The notes under the pieces were generated by a model, which was not told the origin of the DNA, ran no database searches, and saw only the letters and a list, made by a program, of their open reading frames with translations. From assembly GCA_964654205.1 (NCBI GenBank), contig CAZZHR010000002.1:1800-65799 (forward strand): a stretch of DNA of 64,000 nt. The letters run 5' to 3'. Below, piece after piece: positions 6,766-49,729 of this stretch. How positions within the stretch are numbered: the first letter of the stretch is position 1; each line of letters opens with the position of its first letter. Made by a program: the position numbers and the translations under genes. The stretch comes from an uncultured Candidatus Saccharibacteria bacterium (GTDB taxonomy: Bacteria; Patescibacteriota; Minisyncoccia; Phycocordibacterales; UBA2100).

Positions 6766-7488
6766 ATGCAGGAATTGCTCACGGTACTTGCTGCAGCCGC
6801 CGGCGGCGTGCTGCCGGCTCTCGCCTGGCTATGGTTCTGGCGACGCGAGGACAGTGCGCATCCGGAACCTCGCCGACTTATCGCCCTCGCCTTCTTTGCC
6901 GGCATGCTCACGGTAGCCGCCGTAATCCCGCTTCAGAAGCTGACCGCCGCATACATTAGCGAAGCGTATTTCTTTGTCGGGATTCTTTCGATTCAGACCC
7001 TGATTTTTACAGCCTGGTCTATCATCGAGGAAGTGGCTAAGTTTGTGTTCGCATATTTTACCGTCTTGCGCCGACGCGAAGACGACGAGCCGATAGACCC
7101 CGTGATTTACATGGTGACCGTCGCGCTTGGCTTTGCAGCCGCCGAGAACACCCTATTCCTCCTCTCCCCTCTCGCGGGAGATAGCCTCGTGCAGACTGTA
7201 ATGACGGGTAACTTGCGTTTTGTGGGTGCAACGCTGCTCCACATCCTCGCTTCAGCGGTTATCGGCGTCATGATGGGCTTTGCGTTTTATGAGAAAAGGC
7301 GTGTGCGCGTGTGGTACACGACCATCGGTGTTATCCTCGCCTGTGTTTTGCACGCCGCATTTAACTTTTTTATACTGAATACCGACGAGAGCGACCTCCT
7401 GCGCACCTTCGCCTTCGTCTGGCTGGGAGTCATACTACTCCTCGCTATCCTTGAATTTGTGAAGAGACTCCGCCCACGCTGGCGGTAA
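6766..7488 (+). CDS. PrsW-family intramembrane metalloprotease (CPBP-like)
   Basis: Polytopic membrane protein with the ordered motifs EEVAK (EExxK), FAAAEN (FxxxEN) and HAAFN (HxxxN). Confidence 0.55.
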   Translation: MQELLTVLAAAAGGVLPALAWLWFWRREDSAHPEPRRLIALAFFAGMLTVAAVIPLQKLTAAYISEAYFFVGILSIQTLIFTAWSIIEEVAKFVFAYFTVLRRREDDEPIDPVIYMVTVALGFAAAENTLFLLSPLAGDSLVQTVMTGNLRFVGATLLHILASAVIGVMMGFAFYEKRRVRVWYTTIGVILACVLHAAFNFFILNTDESDLLRTFAFVWLGVILLLAILEFVKRLRPRWR

Positions 7489-8534: not shown

Positions 8535-9440
8535 TCACCAACCAGCGAGTCTGCGAACCTCGTTCACCATGCAAACCGCGTGACCTGGCTTACAGTCTGA
8601 CTTGAACGACCTGTCCGGCGTCAGGCCGGAACCCTGTACTTTCTCGCCGCCAGCAGTCCACTCGCCGCAGGTGATCACCGTATAGAATCCGCCGTGCGCA
8701 CTCGACGCGTGCGGGAGAGCACACTGAATGATTCCCTTCCCATACGTCTGTCTGCCGAGGATCGCACTCTGCTTCGGATAAAAATCGAAGCGAATGAGTG
8801 CGACGAGCCACTCAGCGGCAGAGGCAGACTTTTCGTCGGCGACAAGCACATACGTGAGGCCGGCGAGTACTCCCACCCGCTTCGATGTGTACCCCTTCCG
8901 CGTCGCGTCGTCTGCGCCGCTCGCTTGCATGTAGGTGATGCCCACAGCGGGCACGAAGAAGTCCTCGACTATCGCTGCGAGGAGCCCCTTCACGCCGCCC
9001 GGGTTGTCACGCACATCGACCACCACAACAGACGGGCGATTCTTGGCAAGAACGCTCTCGGTGTGGTACTGGAGACGGAGGGATTGGTGCACATTGCCGT
9101 AGAAGTGGGGGATTCTGATGTAGAGAAAATCCCCCACACTCTCAACGTGCGGATCCCCTTCGGGTTTTGCACGCTTCGGCCGTACGTGCAAGGTCGAGGC
9201 TGCGTCGAGACAACCCATCTCTCGCATGCGCGAATCGACCTCCTTCATCCAATCGAAGAAGGCCCAAGGATATACCGCGAGTGCATTCCGAAGGACACGA
9301 ACACACTGCGCTCGCTTGTGGGCGGGCAGGTAGACCGTGCGCTCGTACGCGCGGAGCAGCTGTTCGGTATCGAACGCACGGGCATACCCTGCCCCCGACA
9401 GCACATGCAGGCAGACGGCGAGCAACAGCACGATACGCAT
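8535..9440 (-). CDS. S41-family peptidase (C-terminal processing / tail-specific protease-like), secreted
   Basis: Signal peptide; VVVDVRDNPGG (S41 IIDLRxNxGG motif); catalytic Ser context ADEKSASAAEW; Lys in TYGKG; RBS GGGAGA. Confidence 0.7.
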   Translation of the reverse strand: MRIVLLLAVCLHVLSGAGYARAFDTEQLLRAYERTVYLPAHKRAQCVRVLRNALAVYPWAFFDWMKEVDSRMREMGCLDAASTLHVRPKRAKPEGDPHVESVGDFLYIRIPHFYGNVHQSLRLQYHTESVLAKNRPSVVVVDVRDNPGGVKGLLAAIVEDFFVPAVGITYMQASGADDATRKGYTSKRVGVLAGLTYVLVADEKSASAAEWLVALIRFDFYPKQSAILGRQTYGKGIIQCALPHASSAHGGFYTVITCGEWTAGGEKVQGSGLTPDRSFKSDCKPGHAVCMVNEVRRLAGW

Positions 9441-38002: not shown

Positions 38003-38572
38003 CTAAGCCAAACCGAAGTCGCGCTTGAGAGAAGCTTCCCCCTCAAGCTCTTGCACGACCATGTATCGCATCTTGTAGCCGATACGCCACTCAGATTTCA
38101 AAAGTGCGACTAAGTCTTCACAATTGTACGGAAACACCCAGACGCTGTCCTGAAGTCGCACGAAACCAAGGTGCCTGAGCATTTCCCGGATGCGATCGCG
38201 CAGTCGACGGTTCTTCTCTGGAATGTCAAAAATAAGCACTCGCCACTTCCCGTCCCATTTTTTCTGATTCCGTGCCTGAAGGTCTGCCACACTTTGCAAC
38301 CTCTCGAGCTCGCGCGCACCGAGCGCTGTCAGGCGCAAGCCCGCTGCCTCCCGCCGAGCATACCCCTTTTCGACGAGTCGCCGGTATGTGCGCCTCATAC
38401 TCTCGCCCTGTCGCGGACCAGGGACTAGTCCGAGTCGCTTCAGACCTTGCACTGCATTTGGAGCCGCAATAGCAATCGCGAGCAGTCCGCCTAATTTGAG
38501 CGTCTCGAGTGCGACCTGTTGAATTTTCTCTTTTCTCGAACGCGATGCACCTCTCTCCTCCAATCGCCCCAT
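38003..38572 (-). CDS. PaaX-family-like transcriptional regulator, paralog 1 (190 aa)
   Basis: GLRLTALGARELERLQ...WDGKWRVLIFDIPEKNRRLRDRIREMLRHLGFVRLQDSVWVFPY parallels PaaX (GLRLTRRAESK..WDGKW) and has a Cas2/VapD-like core. Start set at MGRLEERG by alignment to paralog 2. Confidence 0.55.
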   Translation of the reverse strand: MGRLEERGASRSRKEKIQQVALETLKLGGLLAIAIAAPNAVQGLKRLGLVPGPRQGESMRRTYRRLVEKGYARREAAGLRLTALGARELERLQSVADLQARNQKKWDGKWRVLIFDIPEKNRRLRDRIREMLRHLGFVRLQDSVWVFPYNCEDLVALLKSEWRIGYKMRYMVVQELEGEASLKRDFGLA

Positions 38573-38612
38573 ACACCAAGTATATACGACCGTGGGGTAT
38601 TGGTGTATTGGG
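38567..38612 (-). promoter_or_regulatory. Element B: the same 37-bp inverted-repeat element, overlapping the start codon and -10 region of PaaX-like gene 1
   Basis: cccCATacaccaagtatatacgaccgtggggtattggtgtat; TATACT box 6 nt before the ATG suggests a leaderless transcript. Confidence 0.65.
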
Positions 38613-38746
38613 TAAGATGGAAATGCGGGGGTGTCTGCGACCGTCAGCTCAGCGGTCGATTGCGACAACGCGAAAGCCCCGGCGTATGCCGGGGCTTTGC
38701 GTTCACTTGTTTCCCTCTTTCGAGAGCTTGGAGCGGGCGGCGGCGT

Positions 38747-40069
38747 TTAGGCGCGCGAGATGACGAGACGCGGCGTGCCGTAGGCATCGCGAGTCACCTT
38801 CATCGCATCGCGGGTCATCGAATCGCTAGTCGGAAGCTCGAAGTGATTAGCCTTGACCTCCTGGGTCGTGGCTACCTCTTCTGTCTGCTCCTCTGCTCGA
38901 CTGCGCGAAATCATCGAAGTCGCGAGCGCGAGAGCGCCACCCTTGTAGTAGACGAGGAGGTAGCTACCCGCTATCGCGAGAGCGATGAGGCCAGCCCAGT
39001 ACGCGATGTTCGCGATAGGACCGAGTGTCAGACCCGTGTACGGAATCTGCGTGAGCGAGACGTACGGAGAGACTGGCGCCGCCGGAGCAACGTAGCTCTG
39101 CGTGTGACACGTGTACGTGCCGCCAGGACCGGAGACCGTGAGCGAGTAGACCGTGTTGCCGTAGGCGTAGAGCGAAGTAGAACCATTCGGAGCGACCTGA
39201 CCGACCGACGGCGTGATGTACGCGCTGGTGACAAGTCCCTGCGAACTCCACGTGAGCGTAATCATGCCTGTCGTGTAGTAGCCCTGGCCAATCGTGATGA
39301 CACAGTACGGAGCCTGGGCCTGCGGATAGACAGGGTAGCTCGGGTACACAGGGTAGCTCGGAGCGACATACTGCACTATCGGCTGCGGGTTCGCCTGCGT
39401 GACGGTCGTCACGTTGGTGTTCACGTTGGTGTTCGTGTTCACGTTGCAGCTGTTGTTGACGCAGTTGTTATTCGTCACTGGAGGCTGCGGCGCAGGCGGG
39501 ATGTATACCGGCGGCTGCGGCCTCGGAGGCTGCTGCGGCGGGTAGCTCGGGTACGAGGGGAAGCTCGGGAAGGAAGGCGTCGAGAACTTCGGAGGCACAA
39601 TGCTCATCGGGCTCGAGAACGGCTTGAAGCTGTAGCTTTCGTACTGTCCACACGAATAGCAGTCGTCGAGCGGGTAGGACCAATCATTACCCATGTCGTA
39701 GGACCAGTCACAGGTATAACAGTCGTCGAGCGGGTAGGACCAGTCACTGCCGATGTCGTACGACCAGTCGTTACCCATGTCGTACGACCAGTCGCTACCC
39801 ATGTCGTACGACCAGTCGCTACCCATGTCGTACGACCAGTCGCTACCCATGTCGTACGACCAGTCGCTTCCCATGTCGTAGGACCAATCATTACCCATGT
39901 CGTACGACCAGTCGCTGCCCATGTCGTAGGACCAATCGCTGCCCATGTCGTAGGACCAGTCTTCCCCATCGGCGTGTGCAATCGTGGCAAATGCGCCGAA
40001 AGAAAGCGCTGCCGCAATCGCGACCACTGTGAGACCAAAGAGCAGGTTTCTTATTGATGCATTTGTCAT
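38747..40069 (-). CDS. Secreted or surface protein with about 12 tandem DWSYDMGS octapeptide repeats, a Pro/Tyr-rich linker, an IPYTG motif followed by a TM segment, and a cytoplasmic tail
   Basis: Signal peptide; 24-bp in-frame tandem repeats; PSYPVYP repeats; IPYTG then LTLGPIANIAYWAGLIALAIAGSYLLVYYK. Confidence 0.7.
   Translation of the reverse strand: MTNASIRNLLFGLTVVAIAAALSFGAFATIAHADGEDWSYDMGSDWSYDMGSDWSYDMGNDWSYDMGSDWSYDMGSDWSYDMGSDWSYDMGSDWSYDMGNDWSYDIGSDWSYPLDDCYTCDWSYDMGNDWSYPLDDCYSCGQYESYSFKPFSSPMSIVPPKFSTPSFPSFPSYPSYPPQQPPRPQPPVYIPPAPQPPVTNNNCVNNSCNVNTNTNVNTNVTTVTQANPQPIVQYVAPSYPVYPSYPVYPQAQAPYCVITIGQGYYTTGMITLTWSSQGLVTSAYITPSVGQVAPNGSTSLYAYGNTVYSLTVSGPGGTYTCHTQSYVAPAAPVSPYVSLTQIPYTGLTLGPIANIAYWAGLIALAIAGSYLLVYYKGGALALATSMISRSRAEEQTEEVATTQEVKANHFELPTSDSMTRDAMKVTRDAYGTPRLVISRA
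39626..39961 (-). repeat. 24-bp in-frame tandem repeats encoding DWSYDMGS
   Basis: Period 24 nt, about 12 units with wobble variation; no spacers. Confidence 0.85.
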
Positions 40070-45774: not shown

Positions 45775-45895
45775 TTGGTGTGCTCCTTAAGCTGCGCTTC
45801 TGGTGAGATCTCCGAGGAGACCAGAGCCCTATGCTCCACCCTTGATGGTATCATATTATCTAGAAATGTCAATATATGGCTCAAGTACCTGTCCA

Positions 45896-45931
45896 ATATA
45901 AAAGACAAAGCGCCGCGGTTGCCCGCGGCGC
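45896..45931 (-). terminator. Intrinsic terminator
   Basis: GCGCCGCGGttgcCCGCGGCGC followed by TTTGTCTTTTAT on the minus strand. Confidence 0.8.
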
Positions 45932-45958
45932 TGAAAGATAGCTTGCCTTGCGAATAGT

Positions 45959-46546
45959 TCACCTGTTGCGCGGCAGCCTCTGCTCCGTACGTTCACCTCT
46001 CGGTGCCGACTTCAGCATCTCCATCAGGAGCCCGTTTACGAAGTAGTTCGTGATGAGGATGGCGAAGACATTGACGCCGACGAGATGCCACTCGACTACG
46101 CCATAGCGTATCGGGCTGCCTCCCGGCTCGTTGCGATAGTACGCCCATGCCACGAGCCATATCACGACTGCGAGAATCGTCCCTATGTGCGGCAGCTGTG
46201 CAGTACGCACCTGCCTGCGCGCTTGTGGCGCACTTATCGAGCCGCGCCCCTCCATCTGTCCCATAATCTCGCGCGCTTCGAGAAGCACGTAGAGGAATAG
46301 GAACGCGACCCAGTAGAAGCCGATCCAGAGCTTCGTTACCGTCGAGAACCCACTCAAAGAAAGGAGCGGGATGCCGAAGGTAATCAGAACCATGAGAATC
46401 GGCGCATTCCAGCGCTCCGCCCAGATGAACGGCGGATGTCCAGCGGGGTCACGCATAAGCCCTACCGCAATTTTCCAGTTGGCCCACTTGTCGGGATTTC
46501 GCGGGACTGTTGGTTCCTGACCAATCTCGGTCATATGTCGCTCCAT
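45959..46546 (-). CDS. Membrane protein (4 TM), unknown function
   Basis: Hydrophobic helices ILMVLITFGIPLL, LWIGFYWVAFLFLYVLL, ILAVVIWLVAWAYY, VFAILITNYFVNGLL. Confidence 0.55.
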   Translation of the reverse strand: MERHMTEIGQEPTVPRNPDKWANWKIAVGLMRDPAGHPPFIWAERWNAPILMVLITFGIPLLSLSGFSTVTKLWIGFYWVAFLFLYVLLEAREIMGQMEGRGSISAPQARRQVRTAQLPHIGTILAVVIWLVAWAYYRNEPGGSPIRYGVVEWHLVGVNVFAILITNYFVNGLLMEMLKSAPRGERTEQRLPRNR

Positions 46547-46610
46547 TATTCGCTCCCCCTCGGGGAGCTTCTAGCGCACGTTGTGCGCTTTTATGAGGCG
46601 CGTGTCAAGC

Positions 46611-47306
46611 CTAGTGCGCGAGGATGCGGCGGATTTGTTCGAGGTTGGAGGCGACGGAATTGTCGGGCTTGTTGAGTCGATGAATATCCACCGCGCGGGC
46701 GACTTCTACAGGCCGCGCCACATCGACTACGCGTCCGACGTCGACTGCGTGCCCGATAGTGACCGCTGATGCGATGTTGCCCGCGCTGCCTATGCTGACC
46801 GCACGACCAATGTCGACCGCATGAGCGATGTCGACGGCGTGCGCAATAGTCACGGCATTGCCGATGACCACGGGGTAACCGAGACTCACCGGACGGCCTA
46901 CGATGACGGGGTACCCAATCGTGACCGGACGTCCGACTGTAACAGGACGTCCGACCGTCACCGGCCTCCCGACGTTCACGGGACGACCGACATTGACCGG
47001 ACGAGCCACCGAAACAGGCCTCGCGACGGTAGCGGGACGCGCGACAGATACCGGATGAGCCACGCGGACAGGTTCGGCGACGATGGCACTGCGAGTGACG
47101 ACTATCTCATCGCATGCGCATTCGTCGGCAAAGACCCACGCGAGCGGCGTGAGCAGCGCACCGATGAGAATAGCGATGGCGTACTTCTGCTCCATAGTGA
47201 GATGCACGGGACGGACGTTCACGATTCGGGCGCGTGCTGCGGCAACCGTGTCGCGCACGAGCGACAGGAGCCTCACGGGTACGAATTTCTTTGCAAGTGT
47301 TTCCAT
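46611..47306 (-). CDS. N-terminally anchored protein made of about 25 tandem hexapeptide repeats (xRPVxV / xHAVDI)
   Basis: TM anchor MEQKYAIAILIGALLTPLAWVFA; 18-bp in-frame tandem repeats; start ATG 4 nt after the sortase stop. Confidence 0.6.
   Translation of the reverse strand: METLAKKFVPVRLLSLVRDTVAAARARIVNVRPVHLTMEQKYAIAILIGALLTPLAWVFADECACDEIVVTRSAIVAEPVRVAHPVSVARPATVARPVSVARPVNVGRPVNVGRPVTVGRPVTVGRPVTIGYPVIVGRPVSLGYPVVIGNAVTIAHAVDIAHAVDIGRAVSIGSAGNIASAVTIGHAVDVGRVVDVARPVEVARAVDIHRLNKPDNSVASNLEQIRRILAH
46665..47096 (-). repeat. 18-bp in-frame tandem repeats (hexapeptide)
   Basis: Period 18 nt, coding, no spacers. Confidence 0.8.
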
Positions 47307-47310
47307 ACGT

Positions 47311-47976
47311 TTAGTACACCCCGACAAACGACGCCTCGACGACAAAACGAGCGTCTTTGGATGTGAGCGTGTCGCAGGTGACGAGCGTGATACGAGTGCC
47401 GAGTTCCTTGCGCATGTCGATGCGCGTGTCGGATGCATCGGCCTTCTTTACCGACGTGACCGAATAGAGGTAGTTCTTGCCAGCGGCCTGGAGCGTGATG
47501 GTGTCGCCCGCCTCGAGTTCTTTCACGCGATTAAAAGCCTTGTACATCGGGTTGCGCACGACCGGAAGATTGGACGAGTGCGCAAAGAGAAGGACGTTGC
47601 CACCTTTCTCGCCGAGCTTAGCGGAATCGATGTAGCGCGCAGGACCATTTTTGAGAAGCTCGTCGAGCTCAGCGATGTCGCGCGTATCGGGATTCTGAAT
47701 CGCGAGATCGAGTTCAATGTCGGCGATGATGATTCTTTCTGGCTCTACGACGACTTCGTTGCCGAGCTCCGGCAGGTGCGACAACGCGACCGTATTGCTC
47801 GAGAGCGTCTCGGCGACAGTTTCGTAATCTCTGTCAGTACCATCGATGTAGTCGGGCACGAAGCCGACGGAACTAGCCGCCGAGAGCGAGAGGAAGAAAA
47901 TCACCACCGCGGCACTCACAAAGACGCTCTTGGGAGCGCGATTCTGTGGCTCTACTGAGCGGTGTAGCTGACTCAT
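47311..47976 (-). CDS. Sortase-family transpeptidase
   Basis: N-terminal TM anchor; His in LLFAHSS; TLxTC active site RITLVTCDT; Arg in ARFVVEASF. Confidence 0.75.
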   Translation of the reverse strand: MSQLHRSVEPQNRAPKSVFVSAAVVIFFLSLSAASSVGFVPDYIDGTDRDYETVAETLSSNTVALSHLPELGNEVVVEPERIIIADIELDLAIQNPDTRDIAELDELLKNGPARYIDSAKLGEKGGNVLLFAHSSNLPVVRNPMYKAFNRVKELEAGDTITLQAAGKNYLYSVTSVKKADASDTRIDMRKELGTRITLVTCDTLTSKDARFVVEASFVGVY

Positions 47977-48005
47977 ATATTTATATTGTACCTCTGTAGG
48001 GTTGA

Positions 48006-48029
48006 TTTGTCAATAGTATACTTGACAAA
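48006..48029. promoter_or_regulatory. Divergent promoter region with a palindromic pair of TTGACA boxes (tttgtcaatagtatacttgacaaa)
   Basis: Minus strand: TTGACA-17-TACAAT, with the ATG 8 nt later (leaderless sortase mRNA). Plus strand: TTGACA-16-TACTCT before the CARDB gene. Confidence 0.5.
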
Positions 48030-48056
48030 ACGTAGGAACACGGTACTCTTGCCCGC

Positions 48057-49130: not shown

Positions 49131-49159
49131 GTTATAGCGAACGTATAGCATTTACATCA
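49131..49159 (-). promoter_or_regulatory. Element C, downstream copy: TATAGCGAA-N3-ATAGCAT, overlapping the stop of PaaX-like gene 2
   Basis: gttatagcgaacgtatagcatttaca; same orientation as 49736-49764. Confidence 0.65.
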
Positions 49160-49729
49160 TTTCCCTTTCAGACCGAAATGTTTGCGTAAATCCTCATCAC
49201 CCTCTATCTCGTCAACAATCATATAGCGGACTGCCCTTCCGATGTGTAGATCAGCCTTCACGAGTGAAACAAAATCTTCAACATCGTAGGGGAAAACCCA
49301 TACGCTATCCTGCAACATAAGAAAGCCGATGTGTCGGAGAGTCCTACGGATCTTATCCCTATCTGCTTTCCGATGTTCGGGGATATCAAAGATGAGCACA
49401 CGCCACCTGCCGTCCCAACGACGCGGCACGTCCCCTCGCATCAATGCCTCATGTAGATCCAGCTCTTTCCGGCCTCGGTCAGTCAATCGAAGCCCTTTCT
49501 CCGTGCTACGAATGTGTCCAGAGGCGATTAATCGCTTTCGCGCTCGATTAATCGTTGAGGAATCTTGCGGAGACCTCTCAAGGAGTCCCAATTTGTACAA
49601 ACTTTGGACCGCATTCGGTGCTGCCAAAACAAATCCTGTGATTGCAGCCACTTTGACCGCCGCGAGTAATGCGAACTTGATATCTCTTTTCCGCTTACGG
49701 ATCCTCCCTCGTATTTCTACCTCGCCCAT
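49157..49729 (-). CDS. PaaX-family-like transcriptional regulator, paralog 2 (190 aa)
   Basis: APNAVQ..GLRLTDRGRKELDLHE..RWDGRWRVLIFDIPEHRKADRDKIRRTLRHIGFLMLQDSVWVFPY; collinear with 38003-38572. Confidence 0.55.
   Translation of the reverse strand: MGEVEIRGRIRKRKRDIKFALLAAVKVAAITGFVLAAPNAVQSLYKLGLLERSPQDSSTINRARKRLIASGHIRSTEKGLRLTDRGRKELDLHEALMRGDVPRRWDGRWRVLIFDIPEHRKADRDKIRRTLRHIGFLMLQDSVWVFPYDVEDFVSLVKADLHIGRAVRYMIVDEIEGDEDLRKHFGLKGK

Follow-up and report, generated by a model that had tools for sequence, protein, structure and literature searches.

We describe a sortase gene and the gene that follows it, which encodes a secreted hexapeptide-repeat protein, in a 64,000-nucleotide stretch of DNA (the window; contig CAZZHR010000002.1, positions 1,800 to 65,799, from an uncultured Candidatus Saccharibacteria bacterium). 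Our data suggest that the two genes probably belong to a leaderless envelope operon, in a Kaiserbacteria-like bacterium, in which the sortase is co-produced with its secreted repeat partner, and the same pair recurs in many related genomes. Bacteria of the Candidate Phyla Radiation (CPR, or Patescibacteria) are presumed to lead a life attached to other cells, and most of their surface proteins have yet to be characterised. The two-gene module of a sortase and a secreted, rapidly diversifying hexapeptide-repeat protein, together with a family of IPYTG-bearing substrates, provides candidates for the envelope and attachment biology of Kaiserbacteria, the group to which many of the related loci are assigned. 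The pairing seems to be undescribed so far: the literature that we searched contained no description of a sortase paired with a hexapeptide-repeat gene, and nothing relevant on Kaiserbacteria sortases, leaderless CPR genes, or a left-handed beta-helix at the cell surface.

Conservation of the sortase-repeat pair

We retrieved 80 related loci (numbered with an L below) from GTDB species representatives by sortase alignment. Nearly all are labelled Candidatus Kaiserbacteria, Paceibacterota or Parcubacteria, and some automatically binned ones are named 'uncultured Candidatus Saccharibacteria'. Their sortases are between 82% and 47% identical to that of the window, and a sortase protein identical to it is found on contigs of two Logan assemblies. 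Directly downstream of the sortase, an open reading frame (ORF) with significant period-6 autocorrelation is present in 44 of the 81 assessable loci. In 22 of the 28 xRPVxV-type (A1-like) repeat proteins with a callable start, the signal-peptide methionine is placed -14 to +14 nt from the stop codon of the sortase. The original prediction held that sortase and repeat gene are only 4 nt apart and therefore co-transcribed. The coordinates bear out the distance (TAA at 47313-47311, ATG at 47306, separated by acgt), and the recurrent adjacency with short junctions supports co-transcription and tight coupling as the probable arrangement.

The repeat protein has few relatives in the protein databases. 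Only four were found in a 5.8-billion-cluster database, a word-indexed protein search with a 25-sequence repeat profile returned only 7 proteins, and an exhaustive HMMER search of 1.84 billion representatives yielded about six full-length relatives, the other 267 matches being repeats inside larger proteins. The gene directly 5' of each of the four database homologues is of the sortase family, and the junctions measure +8, +1, -11 and -11 nt; this upstream gene matches the Pfam Sortase family in L004 and L005, and the ORFs cut by contig ends in L003 and L006 align to sortases.

The repeat sequence turns over between loci, with units of xRPVxV/HAVDIA (the window type), GSSYPT (L018, L022, L038, L055, L085), SVPTSx (L052, L079) and PGYxSx (L064), and with SVTVAx and SVPTSY units mixed in a single register in the L046 protein. 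The architecture is constant: a signal peptide, often a CxC or Tyr/acid-rich stretch, and hexapeptides running nearly to the C-terminus. The pair stays intact where the upstream neighbour differs (L018, L022, L038, L055, L085), and it stays intact where neither gyrB nor the CARDB gene that diverges from the sortase in the window is adjacent (L018, L022, L027, L045, L055). Such persistence amid changed surroundings favours a functional link over plain synteny.

Promoter, palindrome and transcription unit

The sortase gene is preceded by a sigma-70-type promoter, TTGACA-17-TACAAT, that matches the consensus at 11 of 12 positions and ends 8 nt ahead of the ATG at 47976, exactly as had been proposed. 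This ATG is the first start codon past an in-frame stop, and homologous N-termini align there. We predict a transcription start 0-2 nt before it, and hence a leaderless mRNA, which is well supported by comparison: 50 of 85 loci have a -35 box, a 16-18-nt spacer, a -10 box and then 4-10 nt to an in-frame sortase start; in most of them the -35 box is TTGACA, the spacer 17 nt and the final gap 6, 8 or 9 nt. The geometry is kept even in loci with a co-directional substrate gene ahead of the sortase. A promoter scan near the sortase reported 3 promoter-like sites where 2.0 were expected. In L022, L038, L027 and L045, where an IPYTG gene precedes the sortase, the sortase promoter has two direct copies of TTGACA about 10 bp apart (gttgacaccc TTGACA) and not an inverted pair.

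The leaderless geometry is thus conserved at the sortase, as had been claimed, but it is not special to this operon. A TAnnnT element stands 5-9 nt before the start of 14 of 54 window genes, peaking at 6 and 8 nt, whereas random positions gave a mean of 1.5 and never more than 7; the leaderless start is a genome-wide habit. Starts with a -10-like TAnnnT 6-9 nt upstream and no Shine-Dalgarno sequence include those at 6766, 7506, 11372, 16883, 26893, 29836, 44848 and 63175, and GGAG or GGGGAG precedes the starts at 9440, 9756, 11449 and 46546. The presence of both types indicates that initiation in this genome is in part leaderless and in part Shine-Dalgarno-led. In Actinobacteria and Deinococcus, leaderless transcription units have the -10 box 6-9 nt ahead of the start codon and lack a Shine-Dalgarno sequence; such transcription was reportedly described in M. 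tuberculosis by Cortes et al. in 2013 (cited in PMC12641261). The window resembles these units in the distance from -10 box to start, in the missing Shine-Dalgarno sequence and in how common the pattern is across the genome, but differs in belonging to a Patescibacteria genome and in having a full TTGACA -35 box. Our literature search returned no transcription-start data for this lineage. The abundance of leaderless sigma-70-type promoters in the lineage matters for gene-start calling in CPR genomes.

The -35 box of the sortase promoter is one half of a 24-bp palindrome, as originally noted, and the palindrome consists of two such boxes placed back to back (Table 1). The further proposal, that its other half serves the divergent CARDB gene, fared less clearly: a TTGACA-16-TACTCT-7-ATG arrangement can be read there, and its counterpart in L007 is TTGACA-16-TAGTAT-7-ATG, but the TACTCT element matches only 3 of 6 consensus positions and no CARDB promoter was called by the scanner. 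Of 85 loci, 63 have a CARDB homologue divergent from the sortase gene, and the CARDB gene fits the strict leaderless pattern in only 14 of 59. If both promoters are used, they may interfere with each other.

We also considered the suggestion that one factor binds the palindrome and co-regulates both genes, and rejected it. In 23 loci a -35-like box in inverted orientation precedes the sortase -35 box, and the two are separated by 1, 3, 8, 9, 10, 19, 20, 21, 31, 35 or 39 bp. The 8-bp gap is found only in the window, L007, L004 and L053, and there the centres differ (gtatacta, gtatgata, gaagatac and gctctgtc). Variable arm spacing and an unconserved centre mean that the palindrome is not a conserved operator. 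From this comparison we read it as a by-product of two consensus -35 hexamers, of no special significance. Two PaaX-like genes occur at 49157-49729 and 38003-38668 (both on the minus strand, the second after the IPYTG gene described below); they have a PaaX_M/Cas2-like domain, scored at 77.6 bits in the first, and in many related loci a small gene of this type lies between gyrB and the CARDB gene (clusters 7, 10 and 17). We found no link between the PaaX-like genes and the promoter palindrome.

Downstream of the repeat gene, the likely transcription unit extends into a third gene, for a 195-amino-acid (aa) multi-pass membrane protein. This protein has no family match in the profile libraries searched; in L004, L010, L012 and L027, homologues of it (cluster 13) are encoded downstream of the sortase locus. 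An intrinsic terminator sits after the gene, at 45932-45895, and none of 200 shuffled sequences folded as well as the native one. Between sortase and repeat gene we found no significant RNA structure (fold z = 0.26), and a terminator-like site at 47349-47332, inside the 3' end of the sortase gene, was put down to chance (fold z = 0.26). There is no terminator 3' of the repeat gene, where two hairpins both lack a U-tract. A TTGACA at 46608-46603, just past the repeat gene, was not taken as a promoter because no -10 box stands 16-18 nt from it. The second of the two hairpins pairs with the GGGGGAG ahead of the membrane-protein gene (GCUCCCC-GAG-GGGGAGC, 46552-46568, minus strand); its upstream arm, complementary to this Shine-Dalgarno-like sequence, could restrict translation of the 195-aa protein. 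The whole intergenic stretch that carries this hairpin has a fold z-score of only -2.2.

Predicted export and fold of the repeat protein, and selection on its gene

The repeat protein had been described as having an N-terminal anchor. Its hydrophobic segment instead ends, throughout the family, in an AxA-type site with an acidic or polar residue next after it (VFA/DE in the window, and AHA/D, VYA/S, ASA/A and TYA/Q elsewhere), which suggests a cleavable Sec signal peptide, cut after WVFA, and not an anchor. We called signal-peptidase I cleavage by the -3/-1 rule. In about half of the repeat family, a CxC motif stands a few residues past the predicted cleavage site, as in DECACDE (window), NCGCDE (L008/L009), DCGCS (L084/L086), TCGCV (L019) and TCDCV (L077).

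Comparison with the closest relative, L007, separates the gene into parts under different constraint. In the mature repeat region, 88 of 112 substitutions fall at third codon positions (12/12/88 at positions 1/2/3), and 75 changed codons are synonymous against 26 non-synonymous; the pattern shows that the repeat gene is real and under purifying selection. The window and L007 both have 37 codons between the ATG at +4 and a second methionine (47195 in the window) with which a canonical signal peptide begins. In codons 1-6 (METLAK) the two differ by synonymous changes only. Codons 7-37 are of equal length and open in both, but their substitutions are spread over the codon positions (16/15/23), with 20 non-synonymous against 7 synonymous changes. 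On balance, we lean towards 47306 as the translation start, in which case the n-region would be Arg-rich and unconstrained.

The original prediction counted about 25 tandem hexapeptides with an 18-bp DNA period. The array and its period are there, and the count comes to 22 uninterrupted units (residues 77-208), running AEPVRV AHPVSV ARPATV ... ARPVEV ARAVDI. Lag-6 residue identity of the protein is 0.50 against 0.10 +/- 0.02 in shuffled sequences, and DNA identity is 0.60 at an 18-nt lag against about 0.24 at other lags; Tandem Repeats Finder picked up the 18/36-bp period only where the array is least diverged.

Read as V-G-R-P-V-T, the hexapeptides fit the left-handed beta-helix motif [LIV]-[GAED]-x2-[STAV]-x. 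When the 25-member family profile was compared with the PDB, only left-handed beta-helix acyltransferases were matched (QdtC at 3.9e-7 and LpxD at 1.4e-6, then LpxA and GlmU). In Pfam, LbH_EIF2B was matched by 17 of 25 family members and Hexapep (PF00132) by 4 of 25, at E >= 6e-4, and the NCBIfam matches of the repeat protein were LpxD and LpxA. Our best guess from these profiles is that the repeats fold as a short left-handed-type beta-solenoid of about seven coils. At three hexapeptides per coil, 22 units would give a length of about 3.5 nm, which is short for a spacer and speaks against the proposal that the repeats project the sortase complex from the membrane.

Hexapeptide acyl- and acetyltransferases (LpxA, LpxD, GlmU, QdtC and the gamma-carbonic anhydrases) share with the repeat protein a long, in-register series of this motif, and they are the only PDB and Pfam families that its profile matched, at scores far below the cutoffs. 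The repeat protein differs from them in having a signal peptide and no catalytic or CoA-binding part: beyond the repeats, the mature protein has only a 23-residue tail and no further domain. The automatic Joint Genome Institute (JGI) name of P0001 is 'acetyltransferase-like isoleucine patch superfamily enzyme'. Because the repeat protein is predicted to be exported and lacks a catalytic part, this name is almost certainly wrong, and we correct the annotation here.

The C-terminal tail is predicted to form an amphipathic helix. AlphaFold2 places a helix at residues 218-230 with a predicted local distance difference test score (pLDDT) of 56-79. The tail is conserved in L003, L007, L008 and L009, while C-termini are not conserved between repeat types. 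The mature protein has a single lysine, within a conserved NKPDNS motif, and in repeat subfamilies other than that of the window there is a conserved GPGKLFAL insert or a lysine at the C-terminus.

Sortase, candidate substrate and competing explanations

The sortase matches Pfam PF04203 with 63.5 bits (cutoff 26.6, E = 2e-17). Its N-terminus has a hydrophobic helix that serves as a transmembrane (TM) anchor, and its catalytic residues His133 (in FAHSS), Cys201 (in TLVTCD) and Arg210 are unchanged in five aligned sequences. None of the NCBIfam sortase classes is reached at its cutoff (class E 36.1 bits against 160, C 34.8 against 160, D 26.2 against 165, GN 25.2 against 158). It is most likely an ordinary Cys transpeptidase of the housekeeping type. 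Housekeeping sortases of classes A and E in monoderm bacteria resemble it in the PF04203 domain, the N-terminal membrane anchor, the His-Cys-Arg triad and the TLxTC motif, and differ in that the window enzyme lies far from the class cutoffs, even that of class E. Over half of CPR genomes are known to encode sortases (PMC6744442).

A check for sorting signals (an LPXTG-like motif, a TM helix and a basic tail), as suggested with the original prediction, was negative for the CARDB proteins in sorting-signal scans and for every member of the repeat family in scans and C-terminal comparisons. A conventional client is nevertheless at hand: the probable sortase substrate is a 440-aa protein about 7 kb from the sortase, with a tandem DWSYDMGS octapeptide array (24-bp period) and a sorting region that reads ...SLTQIPYTG, a TM helix and KGG.... 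Exported proteins of this [ILV]PYTG+TM family are encoded directly upstream of the sortase in L018, L022, L038, L055 and L085. The arrangement is like that of housekeeping sortases with LPXTG/LAXTG substrates, whose clients have [IL]PxTG and then a TM helix; the window system differs by the IPYTG motif that we infer for it and by the paired, secreted hexapeptide-repeat protein. Many of the substrates also have a conserved 65-130-aa tail past the TM helix, as against the short basic tail of housekeeping clients. In the window protein this tail is about 65 aa, unusually long, and ends ...DSMTRDAMKVTRDAYGTPRLVISRA; in many homologues of the IPYTG protein it has the motif (T/K)DSM...G..PRIV(I/V)xR, which is atypical for sortase substrates.

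We propose that a strong sigma-70-type promoter would start the transcript at, or at most 2 nt before, the sortase ATG, giving a leaderless mRNA that would span the sortase gene, the repeat gene and the 195-aa membrane-protein gene and terminate at the 45932-45909 hairpin. The sortase would act on the IPYTG+TM protein of 38747-40069. The repeat protein would be exported through Sec and freed by signal peptidase, and its 22 hexapeptides would fold into a left-handed-type beta-solenoid of about seven coils, capped by the amphipathic C-terminal helix. On this proposal it would be a fast-evolving extracellular partner of the sortase, and most likely either a structural or scaffold protein associated with the wall or an acceptor of proteins that the sortase anchors; it would be neither a classical sortase substrate nor an acyltransferase.

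Several observations weigh against the leaderless-operon proposal as a whole. Both the shared transcript and its start are deduced from sequence. No repeat gene stands at this position in 37 of the 81 relatives, and the order gyrB, PaaX-like gene, CARDB gene, sortase is likewise conserved, so that the adjacency could partly be inherited synteny. The start of the repeat gene is ambiguous between 47306 and 47195, codons 7-37 look unconstrained, and a start at 47195 would widen the gap to 115 nt and void the 4-nt junction, and with it strict translational coupling, in this lineage. The predicted beta-helix stands on left-handed beta-helix profile matches that are weak and far under the family cutoffs (LbH_EIF2B 28.5 against 54, LpxD 36.8 against 242), and structure prediction gave no confident fold: AlphaFold2 gave low-confidence models both of the full protein (five-sequence alignment, pLDDT 41) and of the mature part (eight-sequence alignment, pLDDT 47), each with short strands at six-residue spacing and a C-terminal helix, and a Foldseek search of the PDB with the model found nothing significant (best E-value 0.74, TM score ~0.1).

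Inherited synteny, taken alone, would make the adjacency meaningless, with the repeat gene a fast-evolving, secreted, low-complexity gene in a clade-inherited block (gyrB, PaaX-like gene, CARDB, sortase, repeat gene). The block, including gyrB, is indeed syntenic in most loci, and the 37 loci that lack the repeat gene fit such an account. We give it only a small chance, because the pair is kept in five loci where gyrB and CARDB are not adjacent, because the junctions typically fall within -14 to +14 nt, and because proteins of one architecture always fill the slot, although their repeat sequences have turned over completely. The view behind the original prediction, an N-terminally anchored beta-helix spacer that holds the sortase complex off the membrane, with the palindrome as an operator shared by sortase and CARDB genes, has in its favour that the hydrophobic segment and the hexapeptide array exist, that the palindrome stands out statistically (one match to TTGTCAA-N4..24-TTGACAA in the window, where 0.01 are expected) and that putative regulator genes of the PaaX-like type are conserved beside the locus. 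It is very improbable given the family-wide cleavage site, the length of only ~3.5 nm, the 1-39 bp between -35 boxes, centres that differ even at the 8-bp gap, and the lack of enrichment of TTGACAAA itself (3 copies in the window, 1.2 expected).

A third explanation keeps the functional link and changes its nature: the sortase might handle the hexapeptide protein non-canonically, either as an acceptor for the IPYTG protein, through its new N-terminus or single lysine, or by polymerising it into a surface fibre in the manner of pilin-sortase-pilin islands. The order IPYTG substrate, sortase, repeat protein in L018, L022, L038, L055 and L085 recalls such islands, the pair is tightly and persistently coupled, and a lysine is placed in NKPDNS, in the GPGKLFAL insert or at the C-terminus in the respective subfamilies. 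Against this stand the sorting signal that no member of the family has, C-termini that are not conserved across repeat types, and the fact that repeat composition alone can explain the scarcity of lysine; we regard the explanation as unlikely. Gram-positive pilus islands (pilin, class C sortase, pilin) are alike in being compact cassettes whose sortase is flanked by genes for exported surface proteins, and some relatives of the window locus share the order of substrate, sortase and repeat protein. They differ in that the repeat protein lacks a sorting signal, CnaB/Ig pilin domains and the YPKN pilin motif, and in that the window sortase is not class C by NCBIfam. A 2026 preprint on a CPR pilus concerns a donor-strand-exchange system unrelated to the sortase-repeat module. 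A broader form of the idea, that the hexapeptide proteins form surface fibres or scaffolds of a class not yet described in CPR bacteria, made of short hypervariable beta-solenoid units that serve as sortase acceptors or polymerise without an LPXTG signal, is a long shot. If it were true, Kaiserbacteria would have a sortase-dependent display unlike Gram-positive pili, with repeat turnover driven by contact with hosts or phages.

Table 1 Features of the sortase locus and its candidate substrate (positions in the window).
Feature	Position	Strand	Remarks
Probable sortase substrate, 440 aa	38747-40069	-	signal peptide, ~12 DWSYDMGS octapeptides, Pro-rich linker, IPYTG, TM helix, ~65-aa tail
Intrinsic terminator	45895-45932	-	10-bp stem, 9 G-C pairs, then UUUGUCUUUUAUAUU; fold -27.2 kcal/mol, z = -4.1
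Third gene of likely unit, 195-aa multi-pass membrane protein	45959-46546	-	preceded by GGGGGAG
Repeat ORF, 231 codons	46611-47306	-	22 hexapeptides; opens 4 nt past sortase stop
C-terminal tail HRLNKPDNSVASNLEQIRRILAH and stop codon	46611-46682	-	predicted amphipathic helix; only Lys of mature protein
Hexapeptide array, 22 units	46683-47078	-	consensus [AG]-x-[PA]-V-x-[VI]; residues 77-208, uninterrupted
Predicted signal peptide MEQKYAIAILIGALLTPLAWVFA / DE, alternative start codon 47195	47127-47195	-	AxA-type site kept across family
First 37 codons of repeat ORF	47196-47306	-	long n-region or untranslated spacer; codons 1-6 conserved, 7-37 unconstrained
Sortase, 221 aa	47311-47976	-	Pfam PF04203; catalytic residues invariant
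Sigma-70-type sortase promoter	47985-48013	-	TTGACA (48013-48008), 17 nt, TACAAT (47990-47985); 11/12 consensus match
24-bp palindrome tttgtcaatagtatacttgacaaa	48006-48029	.	two back-to-back -35 boxes (TTGACAAA on each strand), 8 bp between; tttgtcaa-tagtatac-ttgacaaa
Putative CARDB promoter	48022-48049	+	TTGACA (48022-48027), 16 nt, TACTCT, 7 nt, ATG 48057
Divergent CARDB gene, 324 aa	48057-49031	+	TM helix, Cys domain, Pro/Thr linker, CARDB, Tyr-rich C-terminus (Pfam)

The CARDB protein has an N-terminal TM helix, a Cys-containing domain that is conserved among aligned homologues, and a CARDB domain (PF07705) scored at 35 bits against a cutoff of 22.7. Tyr-rich C-termini are found both in CARDB proteins (...YNIYNYPYTY) and in SYPTG-type repeat proteins (...RYDEMTGVYYxSY; L018, L022, L038, L045, L055 and L085), the terminal residue being Tyr or Phe, and this shared end may be a wall-binding or targeting feature.

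Two antisense ORFs on the plus strand, 47083-47958 (291 aa) across the sortase and repeat genes and 38519-40057 (512 aa) across the IPYTG gene, exceed some true genes in length and would mislead longest-ORF gene calling in this genome, the G+C content of the window being 57%.

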